Assembly (NCBI GenBank): GCA_902762565.1
Contig: CACWOS010000020.1
Location: forward strand, 25,235-89,234
Direction of reading: 5' to 3'
From: an uncultured Prevotellaceae bacterium
Lineage (GTDB): Bacteria; Bacteroidota; Bacteroidia; Bacteroidales; Bacteroidaceae
DNA: 64,000 nucleotides
The notes beneath the pieces were generated by a model, which made no database searches, had not been told where the DNA came from, and saw only the letters and a list, made by a program, of their open reading frames with translations. The position numbers and the translations under genes are program-made. Positions 3,089-58,556 of this stretch are shown one piece after another (the stretch's first letter is position 1; every line of letters starts with the position of its first letter).

Positions 3089-3136
3089 AGAGGCCGAAGG
3101 CTTCAAGCTAGCAGGGCGAAGGAAGCAAACGTATTG

Positions 3137-3240
3137 TCCGAAGGAAGCAGAAGGGTCACGCGAAGGAAGCGGACGCCTCTTCCGCTACGTGCGGACGGGG
3201 CGCGAGAAGGAAGCGGAAGGGCCGAGAGCCCGTAGCGGGC
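3137..3240. repeat. GC-rich structured repeat module, copy 1 (GGAAGCGGA-type units)
   Basis: Starts tccgaaggaagc..., like copy 2 at 42272. It carries repeated gaaggaagcgga units and a ccgc-N5-gcgg core. It is far more GC-rich than its surroundings and has no credible coding frame. Confidence 0.75.
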
Positions 3241-3245
3241 AATCC

Positions 3246-3491
3246 CTGATTTGGGTTGACTGCTGACAACAACACCTCCCCTCCTCCCTTCGCATGGTTT
3301 GAATGCCGATTCAGAAAGGGATTGGAGCACGGGAGGTGTCGTTCTAACTCCTCCCTTTCACCTCTGAAGTGTATGACGGGAGGTGTCAATGAGGTGTCTC
3401 AGTACCACCTCCCGTGCTCCAATCCCTTTGCCTATCGGCATTTGAGACTCTTATAGGGATATGGGAAGTCTTGTTAGTCAACCCAGATCAG
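3246..3491. repeat. 246-bp imperfect foldback; miniature (cargo-less) copy of the TIR element at 42397-44003
   Basis: Outer inverted repeat: ctgatttgggttgact (3246-3261) with agtcaacccagatcag (3476-3491), 15/16. Inner arms: 3302-3338 with 3406-3442, a 37-bp inverted repeat with a 4-nt internal mismatch. 3273-3468 is collinear with both ends of the 42.4-44.0 kb element. Confidence 0.8.
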
Positions 3492-3560
3492 GAAACGTCA
3501 GACTTGTATTATTCTGGTTATCTACTTGCAAAAGTATTTGGTGATATAGATTTTAATGCG

Positions 3561-3591: not shown

Positions 3592-4230
3592 ATGTTAGAG
3601 AGTTGTTATTACAAGGGAAAGGTGGAGGCTGGCTGCGATGAGGCTGGTCGCGGATGTCTGGCAGGTAGCGTGTTTGCGGCTGCTGTCATCCTGCCTGAGG
3701 GTTATCAGAACGAGTTGCTGAACGATTCGAAGCAACTGACGGAGAAGAAGCGCTATCAGTTGCGAGAGATGATAGAACGCGATGCGGTGGCGTGGGCCGT
3801 GGGTATTGTGACGCCTGAAGAGATTGACCAGATCAACATCCTCAATGCTTCAATACTGGCTATGCATCGTGCCTTAGACCAGCTGAAGGTGCGTCCTGAG
3901 GCTGTCATCGTGGACGGCAACCGCTTCAAGCCGTACCGTGAACCATTAACCAATAACCATGAACCAATTATCATTCCCCATACCACGATAGTCAAAGGTG
4001 ACGGCAAGTACCTTTCTATTGCTGCAGCCTCGATATTGGCCAAAACCTATCGTGACGACTATATGAACCAATTGGCAGAGGAATATCCACCATACGACTG
4101 GAAGTCGAACAAGGGCTATCCCACGAAGAAGCATCGCGACGCTATCAGGCAATTCGGCATCACGCCTTATCATCGCAAAACATTTAATATGTTGGGCGAC
4201 GGACAGCTATCCCTTAACTTTGAGGAGTGA
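3592..4230 (+). CDS. rnhB: Ribonuclease HII
   Basis: [35 protein letters not shown]... carries the RNase HII DEAGRG catalytic motif at full length. Start moved from 3556 to 3592 because of the promoter box. Confidence 0.9.
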
Positions 4231-4328
4231 AAAGAGAAGTGAAAAGAGAAGTGATAAGTGATAAGTGAGGAGTGATAAGTGATAAGTGAGGAGTGATAAG
4301 TGATAAGTGAGGAGTGATAAATGATAAG
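4231..4328. repeat. Heptamer microsatellite array (GTGATAA/GTGAGGA; 21-bp super-unit x3) filling the whole convergent intergenic spacer
   Basis: gtgataagtgataagtgagga is repeated three times. The array runs from the rnhB stop (4230) to the stop of the minus-strand gene (4329). Confidence 0.9.
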
Positions 4329-4583
4329 TTAGTTGACGGTGACGCGCAATGAATTGAGGACACGACGTTTCAGACTTTCTGCCTGCTCAGGTGTCAGCAA
4401 TTCGCAGTCATCCAAGTGCATGAGGATATCGTAAGCCTTCAGATATGCCGAACGAATCTGGGGAGCCGCAGACAGATAAGAAGCCCAGTAGGACTCTTTA
4501 TCAGGAACACAATCCATGACGTAACGGATGAAGTCGTCGTCCGTCAGGAATTGCTCTACTGTTGTATAGATGGCTCGTTTCAT
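4329..4583 (-). CDS. Small hypothetical protein downstream of an ECF sigma factor; resembles only the cytoplasmic N-terminal part of FecR-type anti-sigma factors
   Basis: 84-aa ORF co-oriented with the sigma gene, with no transmembrane segment. The anti-sigma similarity is by eye only (acidic helix FLTDDDFIRYV..., then ...SYLSAAPQIRSAYLKAYDIL). Confidence 0.45.
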   Translation of the reverse strand: MKRAIYTTVEQFLTDDDFIRYVMDCVPDKESYWASYLSAAPQIRSAYLKAYDILMHLDDCELLTPEQAESLKRRVLNSLRVTVN

Positions 4584-5335: not shown

Positions 5336-5348
5336 CGAAAAAAGAAAT

Positions 5349-5449
5349 GATAAGTGATAAGTGATAAGTGATAAATTTACTTTCTCAAGTAATTTTTAAT
5401 ATTTTTTACATTTTCACTTCTCACTCATCACTCATCACTTCTCACTTCT
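5349..5449 (-). terminator. Intrinsic-terminator-like hairpin built from two inverted heptamer arrays
   Basis: On the minus-strand RNA, GUGAUGAGUGAUGAGUGA (from 5414-5449) pairs with UCACUUAUCACUUAUCAC (from 5349-5376). The only non-Watson-Crick positions are G-U wobbles. A UUUCUUUUUU run follows. It lies directly after the stop at 5442. Confidence 0.6.
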
Positions 5450-8400
5450 GTTTGAGCCAGAAAAGTCCTTTGCCAGATAGGTTTCGTTCTTTCAATGGCG
5501 TCAACTTACCAGTCTTTAAGTCTATCTGGACAACCTTTAGTTTGGGGTCGTTGACAGGTACCGTCTTATCAGAATCCTTATAGACAAGGACATCTTTCGG
5601 ACCATGAAGTTGGTAAGTACCATCTTTAGCCTGCGAACTGTCAACCTGCATGGTGGCGATAGCTTTTAGGAATGCTTCGTCCTTGACGGGGATGTTGGCA
5701 CACGAACCACCTGCCATCAATGCTGCCCAACCCATCTCTGGAGCCTTCTGAGCAGAATAGACAACGGCCTTGTCTGGATACTGTGTGCGATATTCGCTGA
5801 CGGCACGATAGACATCCTCGAAGCGGGCGCTGCCTGTGCGAATCTTGCGCATATACTGGCGCTGGGCCATATTCACACCACCAGGGGGTGTATATTCTCC
5901 TTTGTTATGATAGAACCACTGTTCAATGTCAATGATATCGACCACCTTTGAACGCTTGGGGTCTTTCAGGATGGCATCCTGTACGTCCTTGTTGACAGCC
6001 AAAGCAACGAGCACCTTGCCATTCTCCTGTTCCCATTCAGCAATGACGTCGAGCCAGAACTGAACGAAATGCAGAGGACCTGTGAACTCCTCGCCAATAG
6101 AGTGGATAACGTTGGGCTGCCCCTTGAAAGCATCCAGTGACTGACGGATATATTGACGATGCAGTTCGCGCAGGGTGGGGTTGGTGATGTCGTAGAACAA
6201 GGTAGCCGTGAAGATACGCTTGTCGCCTGTGAAGTTGACAGGCTCCAAGAAAGGCGTCTTGTTCACGTTGTTAGCCGTACGCCACGGACAGTCTACCCAG
6301 TGGGCGCCAGCTTCCAGTATGTTGTGTTGGAAGTAATGCTGATTCTTGAGGAGCATGCCGATGGGTTCAGCCTTCTTGGCGAATTGTTGCAAGCGCCAGA
6401 AATACCACTTGTTCAGCGTTGTGAGGTCGTATTTCGTCATGCCGTCCCAGGCTAAAGCGGCAAAACCGCTTTGCACACGACCTGTGCGTGCGAAGGGCTG
6501 TTCGTAGAAAGGTGCCCATGCGTCACCATTCTTACGACGGATGCGTTCGTGGTCGTCACGACGACGATCCGTCCAGAGGCCGTAGTTCTGACTAAAGAGC
6601 AGGGTGTTCGAGCGTTGCATAGTGGCTATCACAGAGTCAATGCGGTCTGTGCCGCCCGTTCCTTCATAGCCTGGCACAAAGCGTGTCAGGGCTGGTTTGG
6701 CCTTGGCCATCGCTGCGTCTGTCGTGCGACCATTCCACCAAGGTGTCTGGTGCTTACGACCAACGAGCACAGAGCCATCCTTGGTGAGCCAGCCGTTGGT
6801 GAGAGCGTAGATGCTGGGACTAGGTTCTCTAGAATCTCTAGAGCCTCTGGAATCTTTAGAGTCTCTAGAAAAACTAGATATTCTAGAATCTCTAGATATA
6901 TCAAGACGGGCGGCCTCTATCCATTGCTGCAAGGTTTGGCGAGGCTTCAGAGCCTCTTCGGCCATCTTCATGGCTTCTTCGATGGTTGGCGAGCTGCTGG
7001 CATTAAGGTCGCGCTCTAGTACGCGGCACTGCTGAGAGACATCACGTCCTAAACGTTTCTCCAGTTGTGAGGCAAAGAGTGAGTAGGGCTTGACGTGCTC
7101 GTTCATCTCTGTATACTCGCCATTACCATGTATCTGTCCCCAGCAACCACGAGAGTAATTGCGGTTAAGGGAGTCAGGCGAATAACAGAAAAGGCCTGAT
7201 GCTGTCGATTGCCACATGGTACTGTTGGCCGTACTCCAACCAGCTCCGAACTTCTCTAGTTCCCAATTCTTGAAGACGATATCATTGCCATCGATGTTGA
7301 CGATATCGAACAGGATGCCTGGTGCCCACGACGAGATGGCACCACTAGGACCAAAGCTCTCGAAACTCTCGCACTGAACAAAGGCATTCGGACCAGGAGC
7401 CGTATGGCCAACAGCAAAGTCGTTGATGCCATGTTCGGAGTAGCAACGTTGGAACAGTACCATTTCACCGAAAGTCAGGAATGTGCGACGACGGAAACCA
7501 CCAATCTCAGAGACGGGATTCGTCGACATGCAGTCTTCCACGCTAACCTGTTGGGCCGACTTTTGGATGACGACAGCCGAGCCGGCAAAATGCTGGAAGT
7601 TGACCATGCGCACCCAGCAGTTCTCTGCCTCAGCCACATAGATGCCATCCCAGCAATGGTCTTCGTCCAAAGGACGAGCATGGTCATAGTCTGACTCCAA
7701 CGAGAGGTTTTCTATGCCGCATTCGTTGAGGCGTCCCTTTTCTTCATAGACAATAGCTTTGGCACCACCCCACTGCTGCTCGATACTGCATGTGAGGGGG
7801 GCGTTGAGTGTGACTTGGTTGCCATTGACTGCTGTTATTTGTCTGTTCCATCGCACGTCGATATCGCCAGCATGCCAAGCCCAATAGCCCATGCGCTTGC
7901 CACCACCAAACGACGAACAACCAAGATAGTTGATCCATTCTTGGGTGGAAGGGCGATGGATGGCGAGACGTGTACCAGGTTGAAGTGATGAGCGAGAAGT
8001 GATGAGTGATAAGTTGAGGGCGCCTGCTTGGATGTCAGAGACGTCAAAGGTCTCCTTGACGACGACATCATGTGTTCCTTCTATATATACAGCAGCGCCA
8101 CGGTCGTAGCCCGTCTTGCGCAGGATGGTTTTTTCACGACCAGAACCACGTAGCACCACACCGCTGGTACGGATGCGTAGAGGTTCACTAATGATAAAGG
8201 TTCCCTCGCCCAACAATACGGCACCGCGAAAGCCGGACTGCTTATCGGGTTTCTGCTGGCTGACCCAGTCGATGGCAGCCTGAATCATAGCCGCATCATC
8301 CTGTCCTGATGGCGTGACATAGGTGACAGCCTTTACCAATGGAATGGGCTGTTCAGAACAATGGTAACCGCAATATGAGTAATCCATCGGCTGAGCAAGA

Positions 8401-8465
8401 GAAGTGAGAAGTGAGAAGTGATAAGTGATAAGTATCGTTAGCAGAAGCCGTTTATTCTTTTTCAT
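5442..8465 (-). CDS. Large secreted two-domain protein: N-terminal pectate-lyase-fold (right-handed beta-helix) domain plus a C-terminal glycoside-hydrolase-like domain (DUF6298-like); exact activity unknown
   Basis: 1007-aa ORF with a signal peptide (MKKNKRLLLTILITYHFSLLTSLAQP). The N-terminal motifs (DDAAMIQAAIDW...GAVLLGEGTFIISEPLRI) are typical of the pectate-lyase superfamily. A low-complexity SRDS linker sits in the middle. It lies in an operon with PL1 and DUF3826 genes. Confidence 0.6.
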   Translation of the reverse strand: MKKNKRLLLTILITYHFSLLTSLAQPMDYSYCGYHCSEQPIPLVKAVTYVTPSGQDDAAMIQAAIDWVSQQKPDKQSGFRGAVLLGEGTFIISEPLRIRTSGVVLRGSGREKTILRKTGYDRGAAVYIEGTHDVVVKETFDVSDIQAGALNLSLITSRSSLQPGTRLAIHRPSTQEWINYLGCSSFGGGKRMGYWAWHAGDIDVRWNRQITAVNGNQVTLNAPLTCSIEQQWGGAKAIVYEEKGRLNECGIENLSLESDYDHARPLDEDHCWDGIYVAEAENCWVRMVNFQHFAGSAVVIQKSAQQVSVEDCMSTNPVSEIGGFRRRTFLTFGEMVLFQRCYSEHGINDFAVGHTAPGPNAFVQCESFESFGPSGAISSWAPGILFDIVNIDGNDIVFKNWELEKFGAGWSTANSTMWQSTASGLFCYSPDSLNRNYSRGCWGQIHGNGEYTEMNEHVKPYSLFASQLEKRLGRDVSQQCRVLERDLNASSSPTIEEAMKMAEEALKPRQTLQQWIEAARLDISRDSRISSFSRDSKDSRGSRDSREPSPSIYALTNGWLTKDGSVLVGRKHQTPWWNGRTTDAAMAKAKPALTRFVPGYEGTGGTDRIDSVIATMQRSNTLLFSQNYGLWTDRRRDDHERIRRKNGDAWAPFYEQPFARTGRVQSGFAALAWDGMTKYDLTTLNKWYFWRLQQFAKKAEPIGMLLKNQHYFQHNILEAGAHWVDCPWRTANNVNKTPFLEPVNFTGDKRIFTATLFYDITNPTLRELHRQYIRQSLDAFKGQPNVIHSIGEEFTGPLHFVQFWLDVIAEWEQENGKVLVALAVNKDVQDAILKDPKRSKVVDIIDIEQWFYHNKGEYTPPGGVNMAQRQYMRKIRTGSARFEDVYRAVSEYRTQYPDKAVVYSAQKAPEMGWAALMAGGSCANIPVKDEAFLKAIATMQVDSSQAKDGTYQLHGPKDVLVYKDSDKTVPVNDPKLKVVQIDLKTGKLTPLKERNLSGKGLFWLKQK
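6826..6898. repeat. TCTAGA-rich tandem repeat inside the CDS (encodes the linker SRDSRISSFSRDSKDSRGSRDSRE)
   Basis: tctagaatctctagagcctctggaatctttagagtctctagaaaaactagatattctagaatctctagat, containing several XbaI-type palindromes. Confidence 0.85.
8398..8434. repeat. Heptamer array (GTGAGAA/GTGATAA) that encodes the signal-peptide core of the 5442-8465 gene
   Basis: agagaagtgagaagtgagaagtgataagtgataagta; the minus-strand reading gives LITYHFSLLTS. Confidence 0.9.
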
Positions 8466-8823
8466 TGTTTCTAGGTAATACTGTTTTTGTTGTGGATATT
8501 AACATATTTATTAATTCATTACAATCATCCAGCAAACTTTGTGCTTCCATATCTGATAGATATTCAGATGCAGCTAACAATCGAATCCAATATCTTGTCT
8601 CATTCGCTTCTTTTAAAGAAATTTGCATTTTAGTGCCAAAATCTGCTTTTGATTGGGCGAATTGTGCTTCAGCGATATTTGCACCTATAGAAGTACCTGA
8701 ACGTAGGATTTGCTTAGAAATCACAAATTCACGTTGTTTATCTATTAAGTATTTGTTTAAGTTTACAATACGTATCGCAAAATTAAAACTCTTTTCTTCT
8801 AATATGCTTTTAATTTCACTCAT
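8452..8823 (-). CDS. Four-helix-bundle protein (23S rRNA intervening-sequence protein family)
   Basis: MSEIKSILEEKSFNFAIRIVNLNKYL...ISKQILRSGTSIGANIAEAQ...KMQISLKEANETRYWIRLL matches the family signature (SxGANIAEG, EANETxYWL). The ATG is at 8823; the ORF-track start at 8826 is GTG. The gene is markedly more AT-rich than its neighbours and overlaps the next start codon by 14 nt. Confidence 0.85.
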   Translation of the reverse strand: MSEIKSILEEKSFNFAIRIVNLNKYLIDKQREFVISKQILRSGTSIGANIAEAQFAQSKADFGTKMQISLKEANETRYWIRLLAASEYLSDMEAQSLLDDCNELINMLISTTKTVLPRNNEKE

Positions 8824-8859
8824 CACTTCTCACTTATCACTTCTCACTCATCACTTCTT
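8817..8859. repeat. Heptamer array (TTCTCAC/TTATCAC orientation), complementary to the 8398-8434 array
   Basis: 8830-8848 (tcacttatcacttctcact) is the perfect reverse complement of 8410-8428, 19 bp in all. The flanks extend this to about 30 of 34 paired positions. Confidence 0.85.
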
Positions 8860-9489
8860 TCGTTTCATCCAGGCATCACGTTCCTTCTTCAAGTCGTAGC
8901 CACGGGCAGAGAGCCAATTGTTGGTGCGACCGCGATACTTGTCGAACCAGAAGTGCTTACCTTTTGAGTCAGCAGCATCCATCGCATACTCGCGAGCCTC
9001 TTTGAGCCAGATCAGTACCTGAGCCTTTTCCTCTTCCGTGAGGCTTGGAATCATTTCCAACTGCGCATTGTAGTCGCGCTTCAGTCGTCCGTATGTCATT
9101 CCATCTTTGACAGCATCAATCTGCTCGTCGTTCAGGTAGAGTGCTAAAGCAGAGGCCAGTTCGAAGTGATGCTTGTAGAGTTCTGCATAGAGGGCATCCT
9201 CTTGGGTCTTCTTGTCGTACTTCGAATGGATGTCGTTCAGCAGAAAATAACGGTTGGCAATAATGTTACGCACGTTCTCTGCCTTCTGAGCATCGTTGAG
9301 CTGGAGGCCGTCGACAATCTTCTGGGCGCGTCCTTTGATGGTCTCTACATACTGTGGGTCCTGGCCCTCAGTTTTAAGGGCAACTTGGGCAGAAGAAGTG
9401 ATAAGTGATGAGTGATAAATGATAAGTATTAACAATACTTTCAACCACCACGTCACTTTCACTTCACATATTTTATTCCTTTTCATCAT
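8851..9489 (-). CDS. DUF3826 domain-containing protein (pectin-PUL-associated)
   Basis: 212 aa with a signal peptide. Its helical repeat sequence (KAQKIVDGLQLNDAQKAENVRNIIANRYF...) and its position next to a PL1 lyase are typical of DUF3826. Confidence 0.65.
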   Translation of the reverse strand: MMKRNKICEVKVTWWLKVLLILIIYHSSLITSSAQVALKTEGQDPQYVETIKGRAQKIVDGLQLNDAQKAENVRNIIANRYFLLNDIHSKYDKKTQEDALYAELYKHHFELASALALYLNDEQIDAVKDGMTYGRLKRDYNAQLEMIPSLTEEEKAQVLIWLKEAREYAMDAADSKGKHFWFDKYRGRTNNWLSARGYDLKKERDAWMKRKK

Positions 9490-9541
9490 TTCTCACTCAT
9501 CACTTATCACTCATCACTTATCACTCATCACTTCTCACTTC
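9392..9541. repeat. Pair of inverted heptamer arrays with a 22-bp perfect inverted repeat bracketing the DUF3826 start codon
   Basis: 9397-9418 (agtgataagtgatgagtgataa) is the perfect reverse complement of 9504-9525 (ttatcactcatcacttatcact). The 85-nt spacer contains the ATGs at 9489 and 9486. Confidence 0.9.
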
Positions 9542-14365: not shown

Positions 14366-14436
14366 TCTCACTTATCGTTTATCACTTATCCTTTATCACT
14401 TATCACCTCTCGCTTATCACTCCTCGCTCCTCACTT
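14366..14436. repeat. Heptamer array (TTATCAC orientation) between convergent genes, overlapping the last codons of the 14417-14863 gene
   Basis: ctcacttatcgtttatcacttatcctttatcacttatcacctctcgcttatcactcctcgctcctcac. Confidence 0.85.
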
Positions 14437-27309: not shown

Positions 27310-30300
27310 ATGAAACGACTAACATTATTATTGCTATTAGCTGTAGGTTATTGGCAGTTAGCCATTGCAGACACAACGAAACCTTGGACCTTCTGGTATT
27401 GGATGTATGGAGCCGTATCAGAGGAAGGCATTAAGGCTGACCTCAAAGCGATGAAGGATGCTGGTTTAGGTGGTTGTTATCTCATGCCTATCCGTGGGGC
27501 AGAGGAACGCTCAGAATACGGAGGGAAGGCCAATGCTATGAGTGACAACTTTTGGCATTTAGTTGATGTTGCTCTTGCTGAGGCTGATGCTCTTGGTTTG
27601 GAGATGGGTATTCATGTTTGTGACGGTTTTGCATTGGCAGGTGGTCCTTGGATTAAGCCTGAGGAATCCATGCAGAAAATCGTTTTTTGTGATACCATAG
27701 TCCGTGGTGGCCCCCATCATTTCCAGATGGCGAAGCCCCAACACTATGGTGACTATTATGAGGACATTGCCACTTATGCCATTCCTGTGGCTGAACTCAA
27801 TCTTGAGGCCTTTGCATACAGAGGTGCTGACCTGAAGACGACCTATTCTCTTAAGTCAGGGAATAAGACGACCTATTCTTCTGAAGTCACGGTGAACGAT
27901 AAAGGGGTTTATTGTGCAGACAGCCCTTGTTGGTTTCAGTACGAATTCAAGCAGCCAACGTTAATTTTCAATGTGGAGATTGAACCATCAGGCACCAATA
28001 TCCAGTGTCAGCGATTGCTGGTGAAATCTTCTGACGATGGCGTTAATTTCCAAACGGTAAAACAGCTGACACCACCAAGACAAGGGTGGCAGAATACGGG
28101 CTTTAACACCACGTTCAGCATTCCTCCAACAAGCGCTAAATACTTTCGTTTTGAGTGGACACCTGTTGGTTCAGAGCCAGGTTCAGAAGACCTTGACGCA
28201 GCCAAGTGGAAACCCGTATTGCGACTGAAAGATATTCGATTGGGAACTCTGCCACTGATTGACAACTGGGAAGGCAAGGCTGGCTACGTTTGGCGCAAGG
28301 CTCCTGACACACCCGCTTCAGACCTGCGTGAGAACGTCCTTCTATATGCTTCTGACCTTGTACGCATCCCCTTGAACGGCGACCTCGTGGATGTAGAACT
28401 TCTTGGTGGTACATATCGTATCCTGCGTATGGGACATACGTCAACAGGACACACCAATGCTACAGGTGGTGGTGCCAAGGGCTTGGAGTGTGACAAGTTC
28501 TCTCGTGCAGCTGTCGAGAAGCAGATAGACAATTGGTTTGGCAAGTTCATGCAACGCCCTCATCATGAGGTCATCAAGTATATGCATGTCGATTCTTGGG
28601 AGTGTGGCAGCCAGAACTGGGGCTATAATTTTGTCAACGAGTTCATTCGTCGTCGTGGTTATAATCTATTAGAGGTATTGCCTATCATGGCAGGTGTGGC
28701 GATGGTTGAAGGCGACTTGATGTTACGTGAGGTTCGTCAGACAATAGATGACCTTACTAACGAGGTGTTCTTTGCGACTGTTGCCCAAAAAGCTCATCAA
28801 TATGGTGTTCAGCTATCAACAGAGAGTGTGGCCCCCACGATGGTGTCCGATGGTATGACACATTATAAATATGCTGACGTGCCTATGGGTGAGTATTGGT
28901 TGAATTCGCCTACCCACGATAAGCCCAACGACATGCTCGACGCCATCAGTGCGGCCCATGTCTATGGTAAGAATATTGTGCAGGCAGAGGGATTCACAGA
29001 GGTACGTGGCGTATGGGACGAGACGCCAGCTATGGTGAAGCCATTGTTGGATCGGAACTTCGCCTTGGGTATGAATCGTCTCTTCTTCCATGTGAATACC
29101 CACAATCCTTGGCTCGACAAGAAACCAGGCATGACTCTTGATGGAATAGGTCTATTCTTCCAGCGCGACCAGACCTGGTTCCCAGAGGCCAAAGGTTTTG
29201 TCGACTATATCACACGCTGTCAGACACTCTTGCAAAAGGGTAAGCCTGTGGTGGACATCGCTGTCTATACGGGTGATGAGTTGCCAAGTCGCGCTTTGAC
29301 ACCAGATAAATTAGTACCCATGTTGCCAGGTCTGTTTGGAGCAGAGCGTGTGGCTTCAGAGAAGGCTCGTCTTGCTCATGCAGGACAACCTATGGAGGAA
29401 TCGCCTGTTGGTGTGAAACATTCTGCAGGTATTCTCGACCTGAAGGATTGGATTAATCCGTTACATGGCTATCACTACGATTCGATGAATAAGGATGCCC
29501 TGCTGAGTCAGCCCTTTAATTATAAGGCATTGGTGATTCCTAAAGGCACTCTAGTTTCTACACAAGTTAAGAATCGCATTGACCAACTGCGTTACCAAGG
29601 TGTACTCGTCATTGAGGAACCCTATCAACATGCCCAGCTGGAGGGTACTACTCCTGATGTCATCCTGCCAGAAGGTATTGCCTATGCCCATCGTACTGGT
29701 GAAGATCGTGAGATTTATTTCCTGTCGAACCAGACAAGTGAAGAGCAAACCTTCAGGCCGACCTTCCGTCAGATGCGCCAGAATGCCGTGCTCTACAATC
29801 CGCTAACAGATGAAAAGATGCACTTTGACGGCAATGTGACGTTGCCCCCTTATGGCTCCCTATTTGTTAGTTTTGGGCAAGACATTGATTCCCACGTTGG
29901 GAAGCAAATATTCCCAAGGAGGGAAAAAGTGGTTCCCAAGGAGGGAATAATGAGTCAGCCTTGGGATATCACTTTCCGCGAGTCAGGCTTAACGCTGAAA
30001 GACCAGCAACCCTTCGACTGGAGCAAGCATAGTGACGATAAGATTCGCTATTTCAGTGGTCATGCCCGCTATACATTAACATGTAAACTGAAGAAGAGAG
30101 AGCTTCCCAAGAAGCGTGCTTGGTTGTCGTTCCCCAATGTGAAGGATATTGCCCACGTCTGGATTAACGGCAAGGATTGTGGTATTGTCTGGACGGCTCC
30201 TTATGAGTTGGAGATTACGGGAGCGCTGAAGAAAGGCAAGAATACGATAGAAATAGAAGTTGTAAACACCTGGCACAATGCTTTGCGAGGTGCTGACCAA

Positions 30301-30411
30301 GGCAAGGCTCCATACGACGGAATCTGGACGAATGCCAAGTATCGTACCAAGGGCGATGACCTTTTGCCTGCAGGTCTGATAACACAGCCAGAATTGAGAA
30401 TTGAAAAATAG
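27310..30411 (+). CDS. Glycoside hydrolase, GH106-like (alpha-L-rhamnosidase family) with a C-terminal jelly-roll domain
   Basis: N-terminal KPWTFWYWMYGAVSEEGIKADLKAMKDAGLGG and C-terminal WINGKDCGIVWTAPYELEITGALKKGKNTIEIEVVNTW are typical of this family, by recall. Confidence 0.6.
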   Translation: MKRLTLLLLLAVGYWQLAIADTTKPWTFWYWMYGAVSEEGIKADLKAMKDAGLGGCYLMPIRGAEERSEYGGKANAMSDNFWHLVDVALAEADALGLEMGIHVCDGFALAGGPWIKPEESMQKIVFCDTIVRGGPHHFQMAKPQHYGDYYEDIATYAIPVAELNLEAFAYRGADLKTTYSLKSGNKTTYSSEVTVNDKGVYCADSPCWFQYEFKQPTLIFNVEIEPSGTNIQCQRLLVKSSDDGVNFQTVKQLTPPRQGWQNTGFNTTFSIPPTSAKYFRFEWTPVGSEPGSEDLDAAKWKPVLRLKDIRLGTLPLIDNWEGKAGYVWRKAPDTPASDLRENVLLYASDLVRIPLNGDLVDVELLGGTYRILRMGHTSTGHTNATGGGAKGLECDKFSRAAVEKQIDNWFGKFMQRPHHEVIKYMHVDSWECGSQNWGYNFVNEFIRRRGYNLLEVLPIMAGVAMVEGDLMLREVRQTIDDLTNEVFFATVAQKAHQYGVQLSTESVAPTMVSDGMTHYKYADVPMGEYWLNSPTHDKPNDMLDAISAAHVYGKNIVQAEGFTEVRGVWDETPAMVKPLLDRNFALGMNRLFFHVNTHNPWLDKKPGMTLDGIGLFFQRDQTWFPEAKGFVDYITRCQTLLQKGKPVVDIAVYTGDELPSRALTPDKLVPMLPGLFGAERVASEKARLAHAGQPMEESPVGVKHSAGILDLKDWINPLHGYHYDSMNKDALLSQPFNYKALVIPKGTLVSTQVKNRIDQLRYQGVLVIEEPYQHAQLEGTTPDVILPEGIAYAHRTGEDREIYFLSNQTSEEQTFRPTFRQMRQNAVLYNPLTDEKMHFDGNVTLPPYGSLFVSFGQDIDSHVGKQIFPRREKVVPKEGIMSQPWDITFRESGLTLKDQQPFDWSKHSDDKIRYFSGHARYTLTCKLKKRELPKKRAWLSFPNVKDIAHVWINGKDCGIVWTAPYELEITGALKKGKNTIEIEVVNTWHNALRGADQGKAPYDGIWTNAKYRTKGDDLLPAGLITQPELRIEK

Positions 30412-34615: not shown

Positions 34616-34705
34616 CGAAAGTCGACGTTAGTCAACTTTTCAATATGCGAAAGTCGACGTTAGTCAACTTTACGATTAAACGAAAGTCGACGTAAGTCTG
34701 CTTTT
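34616..34705 (+). promoter_or_regulatory. Three phased direct repeats of a 24-bp imperfect palindrome in the topA leader
   Basis: CGAAAGTCGACGTTAGTCAACTTT at 34616-34639 and 34648-34671 (identical), and a diverged third copy at 34681-34705. The copy starts are 32 and 33 bp apart. Each copy is AAAGTCGAC-N4-GTCAACTTT. Confidence 0.8.
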
Positions 34706-34734
34706 CTTGGTTGCAAAAGTAAAAGAAACGATAT

Positions 34735-42195: not shown

Positions 42196-42271
42196 CCTAT
42201 CTTTCTTAAATCCACAAGGAAATATATCAAAATGTACTCTTCCCTATAAAAGATGACAATAGAATTGATAT

Positions 42272-42376
42272 TCCGAAGGAAGCGGACGGGTCGCGAGGAG
42301 GAAGCGGACGGGTCGCGAGGAGGAAGCGGAAGGGCCGTCCGCACGTAGCGGAAAGGGCCTCCGCTTCCTTCGGAAG
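42272..42376. repeat. GC-rich structured repeat module, copy 2
   Basis: A 22-bp unit (gaagcggacgggtcgcgaggag) is perfectly duplicated at 42279-42300 and 42301-42322. A 14-bp perfect stem joins ccgaaggaagcgga (42273-42286) to tccgcttccttcgg (42360-42373). Confidence 0.8.
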
Positions 42377-42596
42377 GGGTGCGCAAAGTAAGCAAGCACC
42401 TCCCCTCCTCCCTTCGTATAGTTTGAATGCCGATTTAGAAAGGGATTGAAGCACGGGAGGTGTCGTTCCAACTCCTCCTTTTCACCTCCGAAGTAACCCT
42501 GAAGTGACCCTCTGAAAAGTTGGACGATTAATGCTAATTTTACAAATTTTAAGAGATATTTCTGGGTCAAAATATTGCAGGCCGCAATATATTTCG

Positions 42597-42604
42597 TACC
42601 TTTG
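42597..42604 (+). promoter_or_regulatory. -7 promoter box TAccTTTG internal to the element, for the VapE-like gene
   Basis: Consensus match 84 nt upstream of the ATG at 42688. Confidence 0.5.
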
Positions 42605-42687
42605 CATCGGCATTCATGAGTGGGTGCTATAGGCTATGAAGAACACATGCCTATAAACCGAATTATTAATTAAAGATCTTAAAAAGA

Positions 42688-43902
42688 ATGAGTAAAAATC
42701 TAACTGTAAACGGCGAGGCTATGAACGCTTCGCTGGAAGGGATGCTCGCTGTCGAGCTGTTTCTGAACGACAAGTACCTGTTCCGTCGCAACGTGCTGAA
42801 CGGTAAGGTAGAATTTTCGAAAAAGCCAACTGAGGCCAATGAACCCGTCTGGCGTCCGCTGACGGAGCAAGCACTGAACAGTATCGTCCTTGAGGCGATG
42901 CGCGCGGACATCTGCGAGGGAAAGAATCCAAAGTCGGACATCCAGACGATTATCAATTCTGATGATGTGCCGACGTTCGATCCCATCAAGACGTATCTCG
43001 ACAGCCTGCCCCAATGGGATGGACAGAACCATGTGGCTCAGCTGTTTGGCCGTATTCCTGGCATCAGTTCTGAGCAACTCGCGTACCTTAGTATATGGTT
43101 GCGCTCTTGTGTTGCTCATTGGCTGCAGATGGATACGCTTCACGGCAACGAATGCGTACCTACGCTGATTGGCGCTCAGGGGTGTGGCAAGACAACCTTC
43201 CTGCGTCGACTGCTGCCCACACATCTGCGCCAGTACTATCTGGACCACCTGAACCTGTCGAACAAGTTCGATAAGGAGATGGCACTGACAAACAATCTGC
43301 TTGTGAACCTCGATGAACTCGAGGCCATCCGCCGCAGTCAGCATGCGTCACTGAAGCAGTTGCTGTCGAAGAACAAAGTGAACGGACGTAAGATCTATGG
43401 CGATTCGCAGGACGACCGTCCGCGTTATGCGTCGTTTGTGGCAACCACCAACAACCGTCATCCGCTGACGGACGGCACAGGAAGTCGTCGCTACATCTGT
43501 CTGACGATTCCTGATGGTCAGCTCATCAACAACGATGGCGACATTGACTATGACCAGCTGTATGCGCAGGTGCTGTACGAACTGCAAGAGCTGAAAGCTC
43601 CGTATTGGTTTAACAACGACGAGGTGAAGCGTATTCAGGAGATGAACCAGGAGTTTATGGAGCAGAAGGATATGGCAGAAATCGTTACAGCCTGTTTCCG
43701 TAAGCCAAAGGATGGTGAGCAGGTGAAGACGATGAATGGCACTCAGATGATTAAGTTGATGCAGAAGGATTATCCTTCGCTGAAACTCGACCACAGCACC
43801 CGAATCCATTTGGGACAGGCTATGAAAGACCTAGGCTACGAGCATACGGAGCATAGCCATGTAGCCTTCTACAAGGTCGTTCCAAAAGTCAAAGCAGCTT
43901 GA
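42688..43902 (+). CDS. VapE/VirE-family P-loop NTPase (DUF3874-type; D5/SF3-helicase-like)
   Basis: Walker A (LIGAQGCGKTTFLRRL), Walker B (LLVNLDELE) and the sensor-like FVATTN; 404 aa. It has the architecture common to Bacteroidales virulence-protein-E / DUF3874 genes. Confidence 0.75.
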   Translation: MSKNLTVNGEAMNASLEGMLAVELFLNDKYLFRRNVLNGKVEFSKKPTEANEPVWRPLTEQALNSIVLEAMRADICEGKNPKSDIQTIINSDDVPTFDPIKTYLDSLPQWDGQNHVAQLFGRIPGISSEQLAYLSIWLRSCVAHWLQMDTLHGNECVPTLIGAQGCGKTTFLRRLLPTHLRQYYLDHLNLSNKFDKEMALTNNLLVNLDELEAIRRSQHASLKQLLSKNKVNGRKIYGDSQDDRPRYASFVATTNNRHPLTDGTGSRRYICLTIPDGQLINNDGDIDYDQLYAQVLYELQELKAPYWFNNDEVKRIQEMNQEFMEQKDMAEIVTACFRKPKDGEQVKTMNGTQMIKLMQKDYPSLKLDHSTRIHLGQAMKDLGYEHTEHSHVAFYKVVPKVKAA

Positions 43903-44010
43903 GCAGTAACGGGAGGTGTCGATGAGGTGTCTCAGCAGCACCTCCCGTGCTTCAATCCCTTTGCCTGTCGGCATTTGAGCCTCTTAAAGGGATATGGGAG
44001 GTGTATGTCA

Positions 44011-44053: not shown

Positions 44054-44073
44054 TAATACTCATCCTCGTTGAA
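44054..44073. repeat. att-like 20-mer, copy A (taatactcatcctcgttgaa)
   Basis: Identical to copy B and 19/20 to copy C. Its reverse complement reads FNEDEY-stop. Confidence 0.9.
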
Positions 44074-44155
44074 GTTTAAAGCACATACTGAGTACCAGCG
44101 AGTTACAGTGCTCCGTGCCATTATTGTGCCACTAATTTTAGACATAGAATTAAGT

Positions 44156-47665: not shown

Positions 47666-48046
47666 TCACATATGAATGTTACGGTTCCTGGTTTGCAGAC
47701 AAGCTTCCTTCATATCTTGGGATATAGCAGAGAGTTGCCCTTTGACACGCTCACACTCCTCGCGATTCAGAAAGGGAAGTGAGGCATTGTACACAGTTTC
47801 TGCTGCTTTTTCCTTATCGGGTTGGCCATTCATATAGCGTTTGACATCGCACTCCTGGCGATAGCTGAAACTACGATAGCCAGACTGAATATAATCTACA
47901 ACAGCCTTAACAGCACCTCTTAGCAGTTCAGGAAGATAGACAGATAGAAAACCGTTCGGAAAACACGAACAGTTGTGACAGGCAGATATTATGCCTATTA
48001 TACAAAAATGCGTTATGCAAATTTGTATAATTGTATTTTTAATCCC
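47666..48046 (-). pseudogene. Start-less 126-codon open frame (possible gene remnant)
   Basis: Hand translation: ...YLPELLRGAVKAVVDYIQSGYRSFSYRQECDVKRYMNGQPDKEKAAETVYNASLPFLNREECERVKGQLSAISQDMKEACLQTRNRNIHM-stop. The only ATG would leave 55 aa. No family recognised. Confidence 0.3.
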
Positions 48047-49451
48047 CTACCACTTCCCAGTAACCACCTTTGTCTGGGCCAATACGTTTAATTATTCCTT
48101 TATCTTGTAAAGACCTAATATGTTTAGCAATAGTTCGACGAATAATCCCAATGGAATCTGCCATTTCCTGGGTTGTAACATAAGGATTCTCACGAATTAA
48201 GTTTATTATTTTCTGTGTACTTTTCTGTGTACTTTTCTGTGTACTTTTCTGTGTAGTATCTGCATTACTACCCTGTAAAGTCGGAATATATGGTATCTCG
48301 ATACGGTACACATCCTGCTCTTCTATGATTGGTTCCTTGCCATTAGCATAAAGCGGCGTATACTTGAACATCTTTCTTATTCCACTGCCCAGTTCCTCAA
48401 CTATACCCATTTGAGAAAACACATTGGCTATCTTTGGATTCTTACGATGTGGACGCATAGTCTGTAGGTTGATAGTACCATAGACGTATGGGATATTCCA
48501 ATTCTCTGTGACGATGCGATCGCGATAAATCGTAAACGTCGTTGGATAAGCACTACTGTACTCGCGATGGATGATGAGGTTTAGGGCAACCTCTCTCAGT
48601 ATCCTGTCACGCAGACTGAATCTCTGTATTCCCTCAATGTAGGGCTGTTCTGGCAGATGCTTCTTGATAAAGTCCATCATTATTGGATAGGCTTTCAACA
48701 GATTGCAACTCAACAACTCCCTGTCATCATATAACTCTATGTCGTTTACTCGGCACAAGAGATCTATTCTGTATGTTGGCAAAGCAGTTGCAATAGCATG
48801 ACTGTTACCAAACAACAAGATTGCTGCCAGTGTCAGTCCCTCTTTGCCTGTTTCAGGATCAATGGCAATTAGTTCACCTGAACGTATAATTTCCTCGTTT
48901 GACAGATTTAGCCAAGGATGTTTCGAGTTCTCAATACGAATTCCTCTTTTCAGTTCATCAAAAGCTTCCTCGTCGAGATCCTTCATCCCTAGCATCGGAT
49001 ATACCCTATCCTCAGTCTTCATTCTGCTCTTACGAATAAACAGATTGGCAATCTGCTCGGTACTACGCAATTCAAAGTCACCATCCTGATTACGGTCGTA
49101 ATAGATTCCTTTATAGCTATGAGCCTGGTTACTCTCAGGGACATAGAAATAAATAATCTGCTTACCGTCTATTTCCATCGGCTCATAACTCAAATAGTAA
49201 GTCGGCTTGAACAGTTGAGGATTATTCATATCCTTTGCCAACTGATCCATCTGCTCTTGAACTTTCGCAGGATTGATGCCGACAATATTACCGTCGTTGT
49301 CTGCGCCCAATACTACATGGCCACCTCTACGATTCAAGAACGCACAGATAGATTCATATACAGAGCGAGCCAGACTGTCTTGCGACTTCTTGAACTCGAT
49401 CTCTGTACCTTCCTTTTGGGCTATTATCGTCTTTAACTTATCTGGAGTCAT
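48039..49451 (-). CDS. AlbA_2 (Schlafen-like, divergent-AAA) / HATPase-like / C-terminal wHTH protein
   Basis: N-terminus (KEGTEIEFKKSQDSLARSVYESICAFLNRRGGHVVLG), mid region (ALNLIIHREYS) and C-terminal wHTH (VTTQEMADSIGIIRRTIAKHIRSLQDKGIIKRIG). AT-rich. Confidence 0.65.
   Translation of the reverse strand: MTPDKLKTIIAQKEGTEIEFKKSQDSLARSVYESICAFLNRRGGHVVLGADNDGNIVGINPAKVQEQMDQLAKDMNNPQLFKPTYYLSYEPMEIDGKQIIYFYVPESNQAHSYKGIYYDRNQDGDFELRSTEQIANLFIRKSRMKTEDRVYPMLGMKDLDEEAFDELKRGIRIENSKHPWLNLSNEEIIRSGELIAIDPETGKEGLTLAAILLFGNSHAIATALPTYRIDLLCRVNDIELYDDRELLSCNLLKAYPIMMDFIKKHLPEQPYIEGIQRFSLRDRILREVALNLIIHREYSSAYPTTFTIYRDRIVTENWNIPYVYGTINLQTMRPHRKNPKIANVFSQMGIVEELGSGIRKMFKYTPLYANGKEPIIEEQDVYRIEIPYIPTLQGSNADTTQKSTQKSTQKSTQKIINLIRENPYVTTQEMADSIGIIRRTIAKHIRSLQDKGIIKRIGPDKGGYWEVVGD
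48209..48256. repeat. In-frame 12-bp tandem repeat x4 (encodes TQKS x4)
   Basis: ttttctgtgtac x3 plus ttttctgtgtag. Confidence 0.9.
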
Positions 49452-58210: not shown

Positions 58211-58527
58211 CACAAGAAGAGAAGACACAGTTGGAAGAACGGATCGTTGACGTGCTGAAAACCGTCTACGATCCTGAGATTCCTGTCAATATCTACGACC
58301 TGGGCATGATCTACAAGATTGATGTCCAGGACGACTCTTCCGTCGATCTCGATATGACCTTTACGGCTCCCAACTGCCCTGCTGCCGACTTTATATTAGA
58401 AGATGTACGCACGAAGGTCGAATCTGTTGACGGCATCAAGAGTGCTAATGTCAACCTCGTTTTCGAGCCCGCCTGGGATCAGTCGATGATGAGCGAAGAG
58501 GCACGCGTCGAACTAGGGTTCGACTAG
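58207..58527 (+). CDS. DUF59 / SufT-like Fe-S cluster assembly protein
   Basis: VYDPEIPVNIYDLGMIY...TAPNCPA; ATGA overlap with the upstream gene. Confidence 0.85.
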   Translation: MTQEEKTQLEERIVDVLKTVYDPEIPVNIYDLGMIYKIDVQDDSSVDLDMTFTAPNCPAADFILEDVRTKVESVDGIKSANVNLVFEPAWDQSMMSEEARVELGFD

Positions 58528-58556
58528 TGAATAGTGAAAAGTGAATAGTGAAAAAT
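58527..58556. repeat. Heptamer array (GTGAATA/GTGAAAA)
   Basis: gtgaatagtgaaaagtgaatagtgaaaaat. Confidence 0.85.

Follow-up and report, generated by a model that had tools for sequence, protein, structure and literature searches.

Within a 64,000-nucleotide (nt) stretch of DNA from an uncultured Prevotellaceae bacterium (contig CACWOS010000020.1, positions 25,235 to 89,234; hereafter, the window), a single gene for a 404-amino-acid (aa) superfamily 3 (SF3) helicase-like protein lies between two long inverted arms. The complete unit is a cassette of about 1.8 kb on the forward strand (42199 to 44009) that consists, in order, of a tandem array with a 22-bp period, a left arm built of short repeats (iterons), an AT-rich spacer with a promoter, the helicase gene, and a right arm. 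An initial annotation, made from the letters of the window, had described a VapE/DUF3874-type ATPase gene enclosed by long inverted repeats, with this gene as the sole one between them; arms and core were confirmed, and Pfam assigns the 404-aa product as expected. The gene (42688 to 43902, forward strand) codes for a primase-less SF3 helicase of the VapE/SaPI-Rep-like kind. It is preceded by the AT-rich spacer (42495 to 42687, forward strand), which has 35% GC compared with about 51% in the gene and adjoins the inner iterons of the left arm. The spacer contains a Bacteroidetes −7 promoter box, TACCTTTG, at 42597 to 42604 on the forward strand, 91 nt before the ATG, so that the promoter already proposed for the gene is upheld. 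The 22-bp array (42277 to 42334, not assigned to a strand) holds 2.6 copies of AGGAAGCGGACGGGTCGCGAGG, as determined with Tandem Repeats Finder and a repeat-family search, and is followed by a GC-rich, hairpin-like segment that reaches to about 42380.

The left arm (42397 to 42494, forward strand) opens with two outer iterons, CACCTCCC at 42397 and CTCCTCCC at 42405, continues with a conserved module, GCCGATTTAGAAAGGG (42429 to 42444), and an inverted iteron, GGGAGGTG (42455 to 42462), and closes with the inner iterons CTCCTCC at 42472 and CACCTCC at 42483, at a spacing of 11 nt. Its mirror image, the right arm (43909 to 44003, reverse strand), begins 6 nt past the stop codon with inner iterons GGGAGGTG at 43911 and TGAGGTG at 43923, followed by an inverted iteron, CACCTCCC, at 43939, the module at 43957 to 43972, and outer iterons that end at 44003. 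The two arms (42397 to 42494 and 43909 to 44002) share an inverted match of 64 nt at 75% complementarity. Their inner core, AAAGGGATTGAAGCACGGGAGGTG, previously scored as 24 matches in 25, is present and in our hands perfect over 24 bp, where 42439 to 42462 pairs with 43939 to 43962. A 23-nt pattern of this core gave four matches in the window and none was expected from 100 shuffles; the 8-mer CACCTCCC/GGGAGGTG occurs nine times in the 64 kb, always within the cassette or a second, gene-less element described below, when about 1.3 occurrences are expected. The arms of this cassette are neither a product of chance nor a generic intergenic repeat.

Pfam matches of the 404-aa protein comprise VapE-like_dom (8e-37), DUF5906, and DUF3874, with VirE also present. 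The domain plan is an N-terminal part (residues ~20 to 110), a P-loop ATPase core (~150 to 270), and a C-terminal part (~330 to 400) that corresponds to DUF3874 and is predicted to be a winged helix, with a putative specificity wing at residues ~385 to 396 (EHTEHSHVAFYK). Among homologues, the core (150 to 270) is near-invariant and the N-terminal (1 to 110) and C-terminal (321 to 404) parts vary. In an AlphaFold2 (AF2) model, residues 330 to 400 are predicted with confidence (pLDDT, the per-residue score, of 83 to 88), and their order of helices (H) and strands (S), H-S-H-H-S-S, is that of a winged helix. By sequence, the best match to a solved structure was PDB 7pds chain A, the SaPI1 Rep1 helicase, which was solved bound to DNA (E = 4.4e-11 with a 37-sequence profile), and the top Foldseek matches were all 7pds chains, at probabilities of 0.91 to 1.0, the best of them at 0.99 to 1.0. 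PHROG matches fall on the C-terminal, helicase half of primase-helicase profiles; correspondingly, the query aligns to residues ~320 to 700 of relatives of ~700 aa at 32 to 41% identity. Searches of Pfam, PHROG, and NCBIfam found no nuclease, DDE, or recombinase domain in the protein, NCBIfam had no matching family at all, and PADLOC returned only AriA at E = 0.0066, which is not meaningful. VapE-family proteins are annotated on small plasmids, such as the 4.3-kb Gluconobacter plasmid NC_003374, and relatives of 31 to 36% identity are found on human-gut virome contigs of 4.6 to 15 kb, which is consistent with a role as replicon initiator.

Relatives of the helicase were collected in a family scan of one genome per species, which gave 378 confirmed relatives; the closest 80 of these served as comparative loci, many of them from metagenome-assembled genomes. 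These best 80 loci encode proteins of 64 to 81% aa identity, and all come from rumen Prevotellaceae (about 60 genomes, often with several loci each). Isolates with such cassettes include Prevotella sp. tf2-5, khp7, tc2-28, and HUN156. Significant inverted repeats frame the gene in 68 of the 75 loci with enough flanking sequence. The framing arms are usually about 100 nt long, and at least 60 nt in 55 loci; the distance from the end of the left arm to the ATG is 140 to 480 bp, and that from the stop codon to the start of the right arm is 0 to 20 nt in most of the 68 loci. The association of such arms with this helicase family is specific, and the possibility raised at the outset, that they might be an abundant repeat with no VapE association, does not hold. 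None of the 80 homologous loci showed synteny with the flanks of the window, and this set therefore provided no orthology-based empty sites; the exact arm core had no match in GTDB representative genomes, among which the window's own species is evidently not included. No such cassette was described in the literature on DUF3874, on VapE with inverted repeats, on BT4734, DUF4248, and DUF6078, or on Prevotella with iterons, and we likewise found no published description, in the searchable literature, of an element class of this composition, as the initial annotation had supposed.

Across the family, the arms follow a shared plan: two outer iterons 8 nt apart, a middle part of ~66 to 67 nt with a near-palindromic module, GCC(G/T)(A/T)TGTACAAAGGG, and one inverted iteron, and on the gene-facing side two to five inner iterons at a spacing of 11 to 12 bp. 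The iteron word itself is specific to the locus, being CACCTCCC in the window and ACCTCAT, ACCTACC, ACCTAAC, ACCTCACT, ACACTCACCC, AACATATAAC, or others elsewhere; it is identical in the two arms of a locus and mostly differs between paralogues of one genome. The arms are arrays of helically phased, element-specific short repeats, that is, iterons. The two arms of a locus have also co-evolved over the long term (pooled odds ratio of 15.6, p = 8e-61), and since this holds at non-iteron positions as well (odds ratio of 11), it points to episodic homogenization of the arms plus selection on the iterons.

Similarity between iterons tracked similarity between C-terminal domains, most of all at residues 381 to 400 (rho of 0.39, with iteron consensus sequences derived automatically), and the association persisted in a partial Mantel analysis of these residues from which the ATPase core was removed (0.36, p = 0.001). 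The covarying residues map to the wing hairpin of the AF2 model. Individual wing sequences go with individual iterons: E(H/R)SH with CCTCCC, DCGH with CCTCACT, DRC(R/H) with CCTCAT, xxGN or xSN with CCTA(A/C)C, Y(N/G)N with AACATATAAC, and HG(H/N)Q with ACACTC(C/A)CC. Two loci have switched. The body of the L044 protein belongs to the DCGH/CCTCACT clade (84% identity), yet its wing is ERSH and its iteron CCTCCC; that of L050 groups with the DRCR/CCTCAT clade (88%), yet it has the wing HRGN and the iteron CCTAAC. Conversely, L038 and L064 have the wing APKNVV and the iteron CCTAAC in common on different backgrounds. In the sequences compared, the wing-iteron pairing holds across independent lineages. 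The covariation and the predicted fold together suggest that DUF3874 is a winged helix that would recognize the iterons of its own cassette. The arms had been read at first as foldback termini suited to hairpin priming; as arrays of iterons that co-vary with the wing of the encoded protein, they do not sustain that reading.

The 22-bp arrays form a second set of repeats. In 27 loci, an array of exactly this period precedes the left arm, and 31 of the 66 loci tested have some tandem repeat there. They comprise 2 to 4.4 copies of locus-specific, often palindromic units and are located 0 to 280 bp from the arm. Because the homology between loci L010 and L011 starts within these arrays, we take them to belong to the unit, and they are retained in the 50%-identity homologue L109. 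The type of 22-bp unit tracked neither the N-terminal domain of the helicase (0.60 compared with 0.59 identity) nor the iteron class of the arms. In Bacteroides finegoldii, two short VapE/DUF3874 genes, L106 and L107 (447 and 412 aa), adjoin a divergent gene for an HU-family DNA-binding protein; the repeat finder saw no long arms at either, and only L107 has 22-bp arrays, both between the two genes and on the far side of the HU gene. The "plasmid" records that hold L106 and L107 look like pieces of chromosome, because transketolase and rpiB are present in them. A 22-bp unit of the type TTCCCAnnnnGGGAA occurs three times at 29886 to 29950 of the window, inside a mechanically called 1,033-aa open reading frame (27310 to 30411), and is also found in the arrays upstream of the left arms of L031, L036, L041, L056, L061, L063, and L077.

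The cassette is clearly discrete and has reached different sites. The metagenome contig L093 carries window positions 42202 to 44009 at 94.9% identity between wholly different flanks: an fhs-like gene begins at one end, and a different terminator lies at the other. In a sister lineage (contigs L096 and L097; LUD protein 94% identical, DNA ~81%), synteny extends to 42198, 3 nt past the stop codon of the LUD gene, after which a GH97 gene follows and the cassette is absent. Homology is likewise lost near the arm ends in the related cassette pairs L010/L011, L007/L008, L054/L063, and L051/L065, the last within a single genome, on the right no more than a few nucleotides from where the arm ends and on the left 40 to 190 bp outside the arm. 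L093 and the sister lineage place the ends of the unit at about 42199/42202 and 44009. The repeats are not terminal, contrary to what had been assumed: the left arm starts ~195 bp inside the left end of the unit, and the sequences at the two ends show no inverted match to one another. At the occupied sites compared (the window, L093, L010/L011, and L069), the unit is not bordered by a direct repeat, and there are no families of near-identical copies; paralogues in one genome carry different repeats. Presence/absence polymorphism was accordingly seen between lineages, with the sister lineage lacking the unit, and not within the strain population, where it is present in all of ~45 contigs and always points the same way relative to the LUD gene.

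This constant orientation bears on whether the arms delimit an invertible, phase-variable segment in which recombination between them flips the gene. Inverted repeats of 70 to 97% identity do flank a 1.4-kb segment, and many family contigs are just 1.3 to 2.5 kb long, about the length of the inter-arm segment, which suggests that assemblers break at the inverted arms. The gene has its own promoter, however, so that flipping would not switch it, and no invertase gene is nearby. We consider inversion highly improbable, and it was ruled out as a candidate by the constant orientation in ~45 contigs.

A second element, 39 kb from the cassette, consists of the arms without the gene. This miniature (3273 to 3469, forward strand) is made up of a left-arm copy (3273 to 3370, 93% identity), 5 nt, and a right-arm copy (3376 to 3469, 91%), collinear with the full copy, in which the arms are 1,414 nt apart. 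The cargo-less, collinear copy listed in the initial annotation is therefore real; the distance of ~65 nt then given between its arms is true of their cores, the arms themselves being 5 nt apart. The miniature keeps the CACCTCCC iterons, the central modules, and, on its left, a diverged 22-bp repeat region (3125 to 3238, not assigned to a strand) that is homologous to 42260 to 42351 and corresponds to the array at 42277 to 42334 of the full copy. What it lacks is exactly the core of spacer, promoter, and gene. It is found in other strains too (contigs L090 and L092). As the gene keeps the same position relative to the arms throughout the family, the simplest account is that the miniature arose by internal deletion. 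Its iteron word is that of the full copy in the same genome, so that the miniature could be a target in trans: a satellite origin or a titration site, served by the protein of the full copy. A BLAST scan of the fetched loci for gene-less palindromes missed the window's own miniature, and no count of solo copies was taken from it.

The miniature is predicted to fold into a very stable hairpin on either strand (−110 and −118 kcal/mol on the two strands; z = −9 [−9.2] and −12), as would be expected were the arms RNA, with the 5′ and 3′ flanks of the mRNA pairing as a long stem for RNase III processing or stabilization and the miniature acting as a terminator or a structured small RNA. Within the core, full copy and miniature differ by one double change, A-T to G-C, that would also fit; this single shared change stands against 13 single-arm changes and is not significant (p = 0.48). 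All 69 loci examined have a TAnnTTTG box in the interval from the left arm to the ATG; with the promoter placed past it, the left arm does not belong to the transcript of the gene. Wobble pairs are not enriched among the arm mismatches of either strand (224 of the G:T type and 220 of the A:C type). Direct iterons phased at 11 to 12 bp are, moreover, unnecessary for pairing, and Rfam gave no match at gathering score over the whole window. The promoter position and the lack of G:U bias indicate that the arms act as DNA and not RNA; on these two grounds, the RNA stem was ruled out, and we regard an RNA element as very improbable.

A pair of full and internally deleted copies that share both arms, in a discrete unit at different sites, resembles an autonomous transposon with terminal inverted repeats (TIRs) and its miniature derivative (miniature inverted-repeat transposable element [MITE]), the relationship first proposed for these two elements. 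The cassette might then be a non-autonomous TIR transposon, with arms or adjacent sequences bound by a transposase encoded elsewhere and the helicase as cargo or accessory. The unrelated contexts of the unit, its absence in the sister lineage, and the existence of a gene-less miniature fit such a transposon, as does a 25-nt module that lies inverted just outside the arms of both the miniature and other units. Beside the miniature, its left copy is GGGCAATCCCTGATTTGGGTTGACT (3237 to 3261, forward strand) and its right copy TGACGTTTCCTGATCTGGGTTGACT (3476 to 3500, reverse strand). With the consensus TGACGTTTCCTGATTTGGGTTGACT, the module is found just outside the arms of 12 other units, on the forward strand at left and the reverse strand at right, whatever the iteron class (seen in L012, L013, L016, L018, L037, L057, L069, L072, and L081); the full copy of the window does not have it. 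Against a transposon, the iteron word co-varies with the predicted DNA-binding wing of a protein encoded inside the unit and not with a trans factor, the arms are not terminal, the ends are not mutual inverted repeats, and neither a target duplication nor a burst of near-identical copies is seen. No transposase or integrase gene is found among the neighbors of the full copy or the miniature, as was noticed from the start, and none recurs near 70 family loci, where the only recurrent neighbors are a DUF6078 gene (13 to 15 loci) and BspA-type leucine-rich repeat (LRR) genes (7 loci). A transposon is in our judgment decidedly unlikely, and the MITE-like relationship was given up: target duplications are missing, near-identical copies are few, and the iteron anatomy is that of an initiator-origin module.

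The DUF6078 protein of these loci has 147 aa and is encoded about 80 nt past the right arm, on the same strand (for example, at 5404 to 5847 of L012). In the pairs L017/L020 and L057/L072, homology runs past the right arm on this side.

The closest known counterparts of the cassette are the replication modules of Staphylococcus aureus pathogenicity islands (SaPIs) and related phage-inducible chromosomal islands (PICIs), together with SCCmec Cch2 and its putative ori. SaPI Rep and SCCmec Cch2 are self-loading helicases that use their C-terminal domain (in SaPI Rep, a winged helix) to bind iterons of 5 to 6 nt directly downstream of the rep gene, and SaPI iterons form two opposed sets around an AT-rich center (PMC9371898, PMC7581432). 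The cassette shares with them an SF3 VapE-like helicase homologous to SaPI Rep, as the 7pds and Pfam matches indicate, a predicted C-terminal winged helix whose wing co-varies with the element-specific iteron, opposed iteron sets, and iterons that start right after the stop codon (6 nt in the window). Unlike in SaPIs, the opposed sets are split so that they bracket gene and promoter, the "center" being AT-rich spacer plus gene, and each arm has a conserved palindromic module. Further differences are that the cassette is a 1.8-kb single-gene unit in a Bacteroidota host, rumen Prevotella, with ~15% identity to Rep1, and that there is no primase, integrase, repressor, packaging gene, or island around it, the neighbors being LUD-domain, sigma-70, YqeY, and RNase HII genes. 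Within Bacteroidales, primase-helicases of the BT4734/BF3469 type combine a VirE_N archaeo-eukaryotic primase (AEP) domain with VirE and DUF3874 (PMC11724360). The window protein shares with these the VapE ATPase and DUF3874 and equals their helicase and winged-helix half, whereas the AEP primase domain of ~300 aa is missing.

Two further systems resemble the cassette in the placing of their repeats. In mini-F (incB-repE-incC) and P1 (incC-repA-incA), an initiator gene has arrays of its own iterons on both sides, of which one is the origin and the other serves copy control by handcuffing; the initiators, RepE and RepA, are WH1-WH2 proteins and not helicases, and the replicons are plasmids. Here as there, the rep gene is flanked by arrays of what are putatively its own iterons, and a 22-bp repeat period occurs in both. 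By contrast, the cassette encodes a P-loop helicase, resides at chromosomal loci with no circle found, and has 22-bp arrays that do not track the encoded protein. The alpha protein of P4 is a helicase with a C-terminal winged-helix DNA-binding domain, and the same octamer iteron is found in ori and crr, both of which are needed for replication. A helicase with a C-terminal winged helix (predicted in our case) and one iteron in two separated cis sites are features that the cassette has in common with P4. Alpha also has a primase domain, and the genome of P4, a satellite phage of 11.6 kb, contains integrase and capsid-hijacking genes, none of which the cassette possesses.

Judged by its sequence, the locus is best explained as a member of an extensive family, in rumen Prevotellaceae, of chromosomal cassettes that are compact (~1.8 kb), hold a single gene, and have the anatomy of an initiator-origin module. 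Our data directly support the architecture, its conservation, constraint at the DNA level, protein-iteron covariation, and the discreteness of the cassette. We infer from these that the protein binds the arms, that an origin may fire there, and that some route to new sites exists. We favor, with moderate confidence, a Rep-plus-split-origin cassette with cognate, co-evolving iterons, of which the miniature would be an origin-only derivative. In such a cassette, the winged helix would dock the protein on both arms, probably in the form of hexamers or of a double hexamer spanning the two; the protein would then melt the adjacent AT-rich spacer and self-load, in the manner of SaPI Rep and SCCmec Cch2 at the iterons that directly follow their genes. 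The miniature, whether an origin-only copy or a site of titration or handcuffing, may be served in trans by the protein that is encoded 39 kb away. Of the unconventional, replicon-like mobile element put forward originally, the discrete, SF3-helicase-centered unit with origin-like anatomy is retained, and the framing in terms of TIRs, MITEs, and hairpin priming is dropped.

Several observations weigh against a split origin. The repeat finder saw no long arms at the 50%-identity homologue L109 or at Bacteroides relatives of ~31 to 33% identity, so that the arms may be a feature of a subfamily; around L109, short GTTACACC-like words in inverted orientation were noted by eye only. The second set of repeats, the 22-bp arrays, does not track the encoded protein, and the covariation statistic is based on crude iteron consensus sequences. 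AF2 models the ATPase core poorly (pLDDT under 50), and the match of the fold as a whole is weak by E-value (2e-3). A peptide-pattern scan of IMG/VR found no relative. No circular or extrachromosomal contig was found; the one short contig examined for this, L108, is a piece of chromosome whose ends do not overlap. The cassette is fixed in the population, among housekeeping genes (LUD-domain, yqeY, and rnhB), and is without a primase, which is odd for an active origin. Finally, the miniature has no AT-rich center and may be unable to melt.

The last two points would suit a protein that binds the arms without firing replication, be it in autoregulation or titration, as a roadblock or insulator at the borders of variable regions, or as the sensor or effector of a conflict system, with the miniature as an extra binding site. 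The evidence for cognate sites is the same as for an origin. Both copies, moreover, adjoin strain-variable DNA, to the right of 44073 to 44138 and to the left of 2949, respectively, and BspA-type surface-protein genes adjoin 7 family loci as well as the miniature. Such a non-replicative role is opposed by the strong conservation of the ATPase core and by the nature of the characterized close relatives, every one of which is a replicative initiator helicase. The left arm ends ~75 nt upstream of the −33 region of the promoter without overlapping it and is therefore not a classical operator, and the lack of a meaningful PADLOC match gives no sign of a conflict system. We hold binding without replication, the chief rival of the split origin, to be unlikely. 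In the opposite direction, the split-origin cassettes could be autonomous minimal chromosomal replicons, that is, private origins, or a 1.8-kb unit that spreads through a replicating intermediate without transposase or integrase, with miniatures as trans-activated satellite origins; this stronger proposal seems to us unlikely.

The neighbors of the two copies in the window comprise sigma-70, LUD-domain, YqeY, RNase HII, and BspA-type LRR genes. To the right of the cassette, the DNA is strain-variable with breakpoints at about 44073, 44138, and 44608 (loci L001, L002, L003, L005, L086, L088, and L108), and the alternatives there are yqeY followed by various genes or a polysaccharide locus with ABC-transporter, pyruvyl-transferase, and glycosyltransferase genes. 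This variable region contains, at 48039 to 49451 on the reverse strand, a gene for a 470-aa protein with Schlafen AlbA_2, HATPase_c_4, and winged helix-turn-helix domains. To the left of the miniature, ~20 copies of a 78-bp tandem repeat (396 to 2700, reverse strand; reverse-complement consensus GLTNLDVSNFKTDNVTDMRSMFYGCS) encode 26-aa leucine-rich repeats of the BspA type; this BspA-type gene varies among strains, because L090 and L092 diverge from the window to the left of 2949. Heptamer arrays of AAGTGAT/AAGTGAG, with up to 11.6 copies, are located at many intergenic spots of the window in both orientations (4222 to 4329, 5348 to 5449, 7982 to 8433, 8816 to 8858, 9396 to 9540, 14368 to 14435, and 58525 to 58554), and these heptamers also occur beside the cassettes in L007, L010, and L017. 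A 32-bp repeat with partly palindromic units (CGAAAGTCGACGTTAGTCAACTTTTC..., 2.8 copies, 34616 to 34706) separates a promoter-like box from the start of a topoisomerase gene (34735). No tRNA or tmRNA that could serve as an integration target was found in the window.

If the protein does bind and fire the arms, the cassette would be a very small self-contained initiator-origin unit, with one gene and two arrays in 1.8 kb, present in multiple copies in a dominant rumen genus. The pairing of wing residues with iteron bases would amount to a readable recognition code, and DUF3874 would gain a function in iteron recognition. The fragmentation of metagenome assemblies at these genes would also be explained, and the cassettes may be a source of orthogonal replicon parts for two genera that are poorly tractable genetically, Prevotella and Bacteroides. 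They would further offer a test case for extra, initiator-specific chromosomal origins or for single-gene replicative mobile cassettes. Should the private-origin proposal be true, rumen Prevotella chromosomes would have several initiator-specific secondary origins, a bacterial counterpart of the multi-origin chromosomes of archaea.

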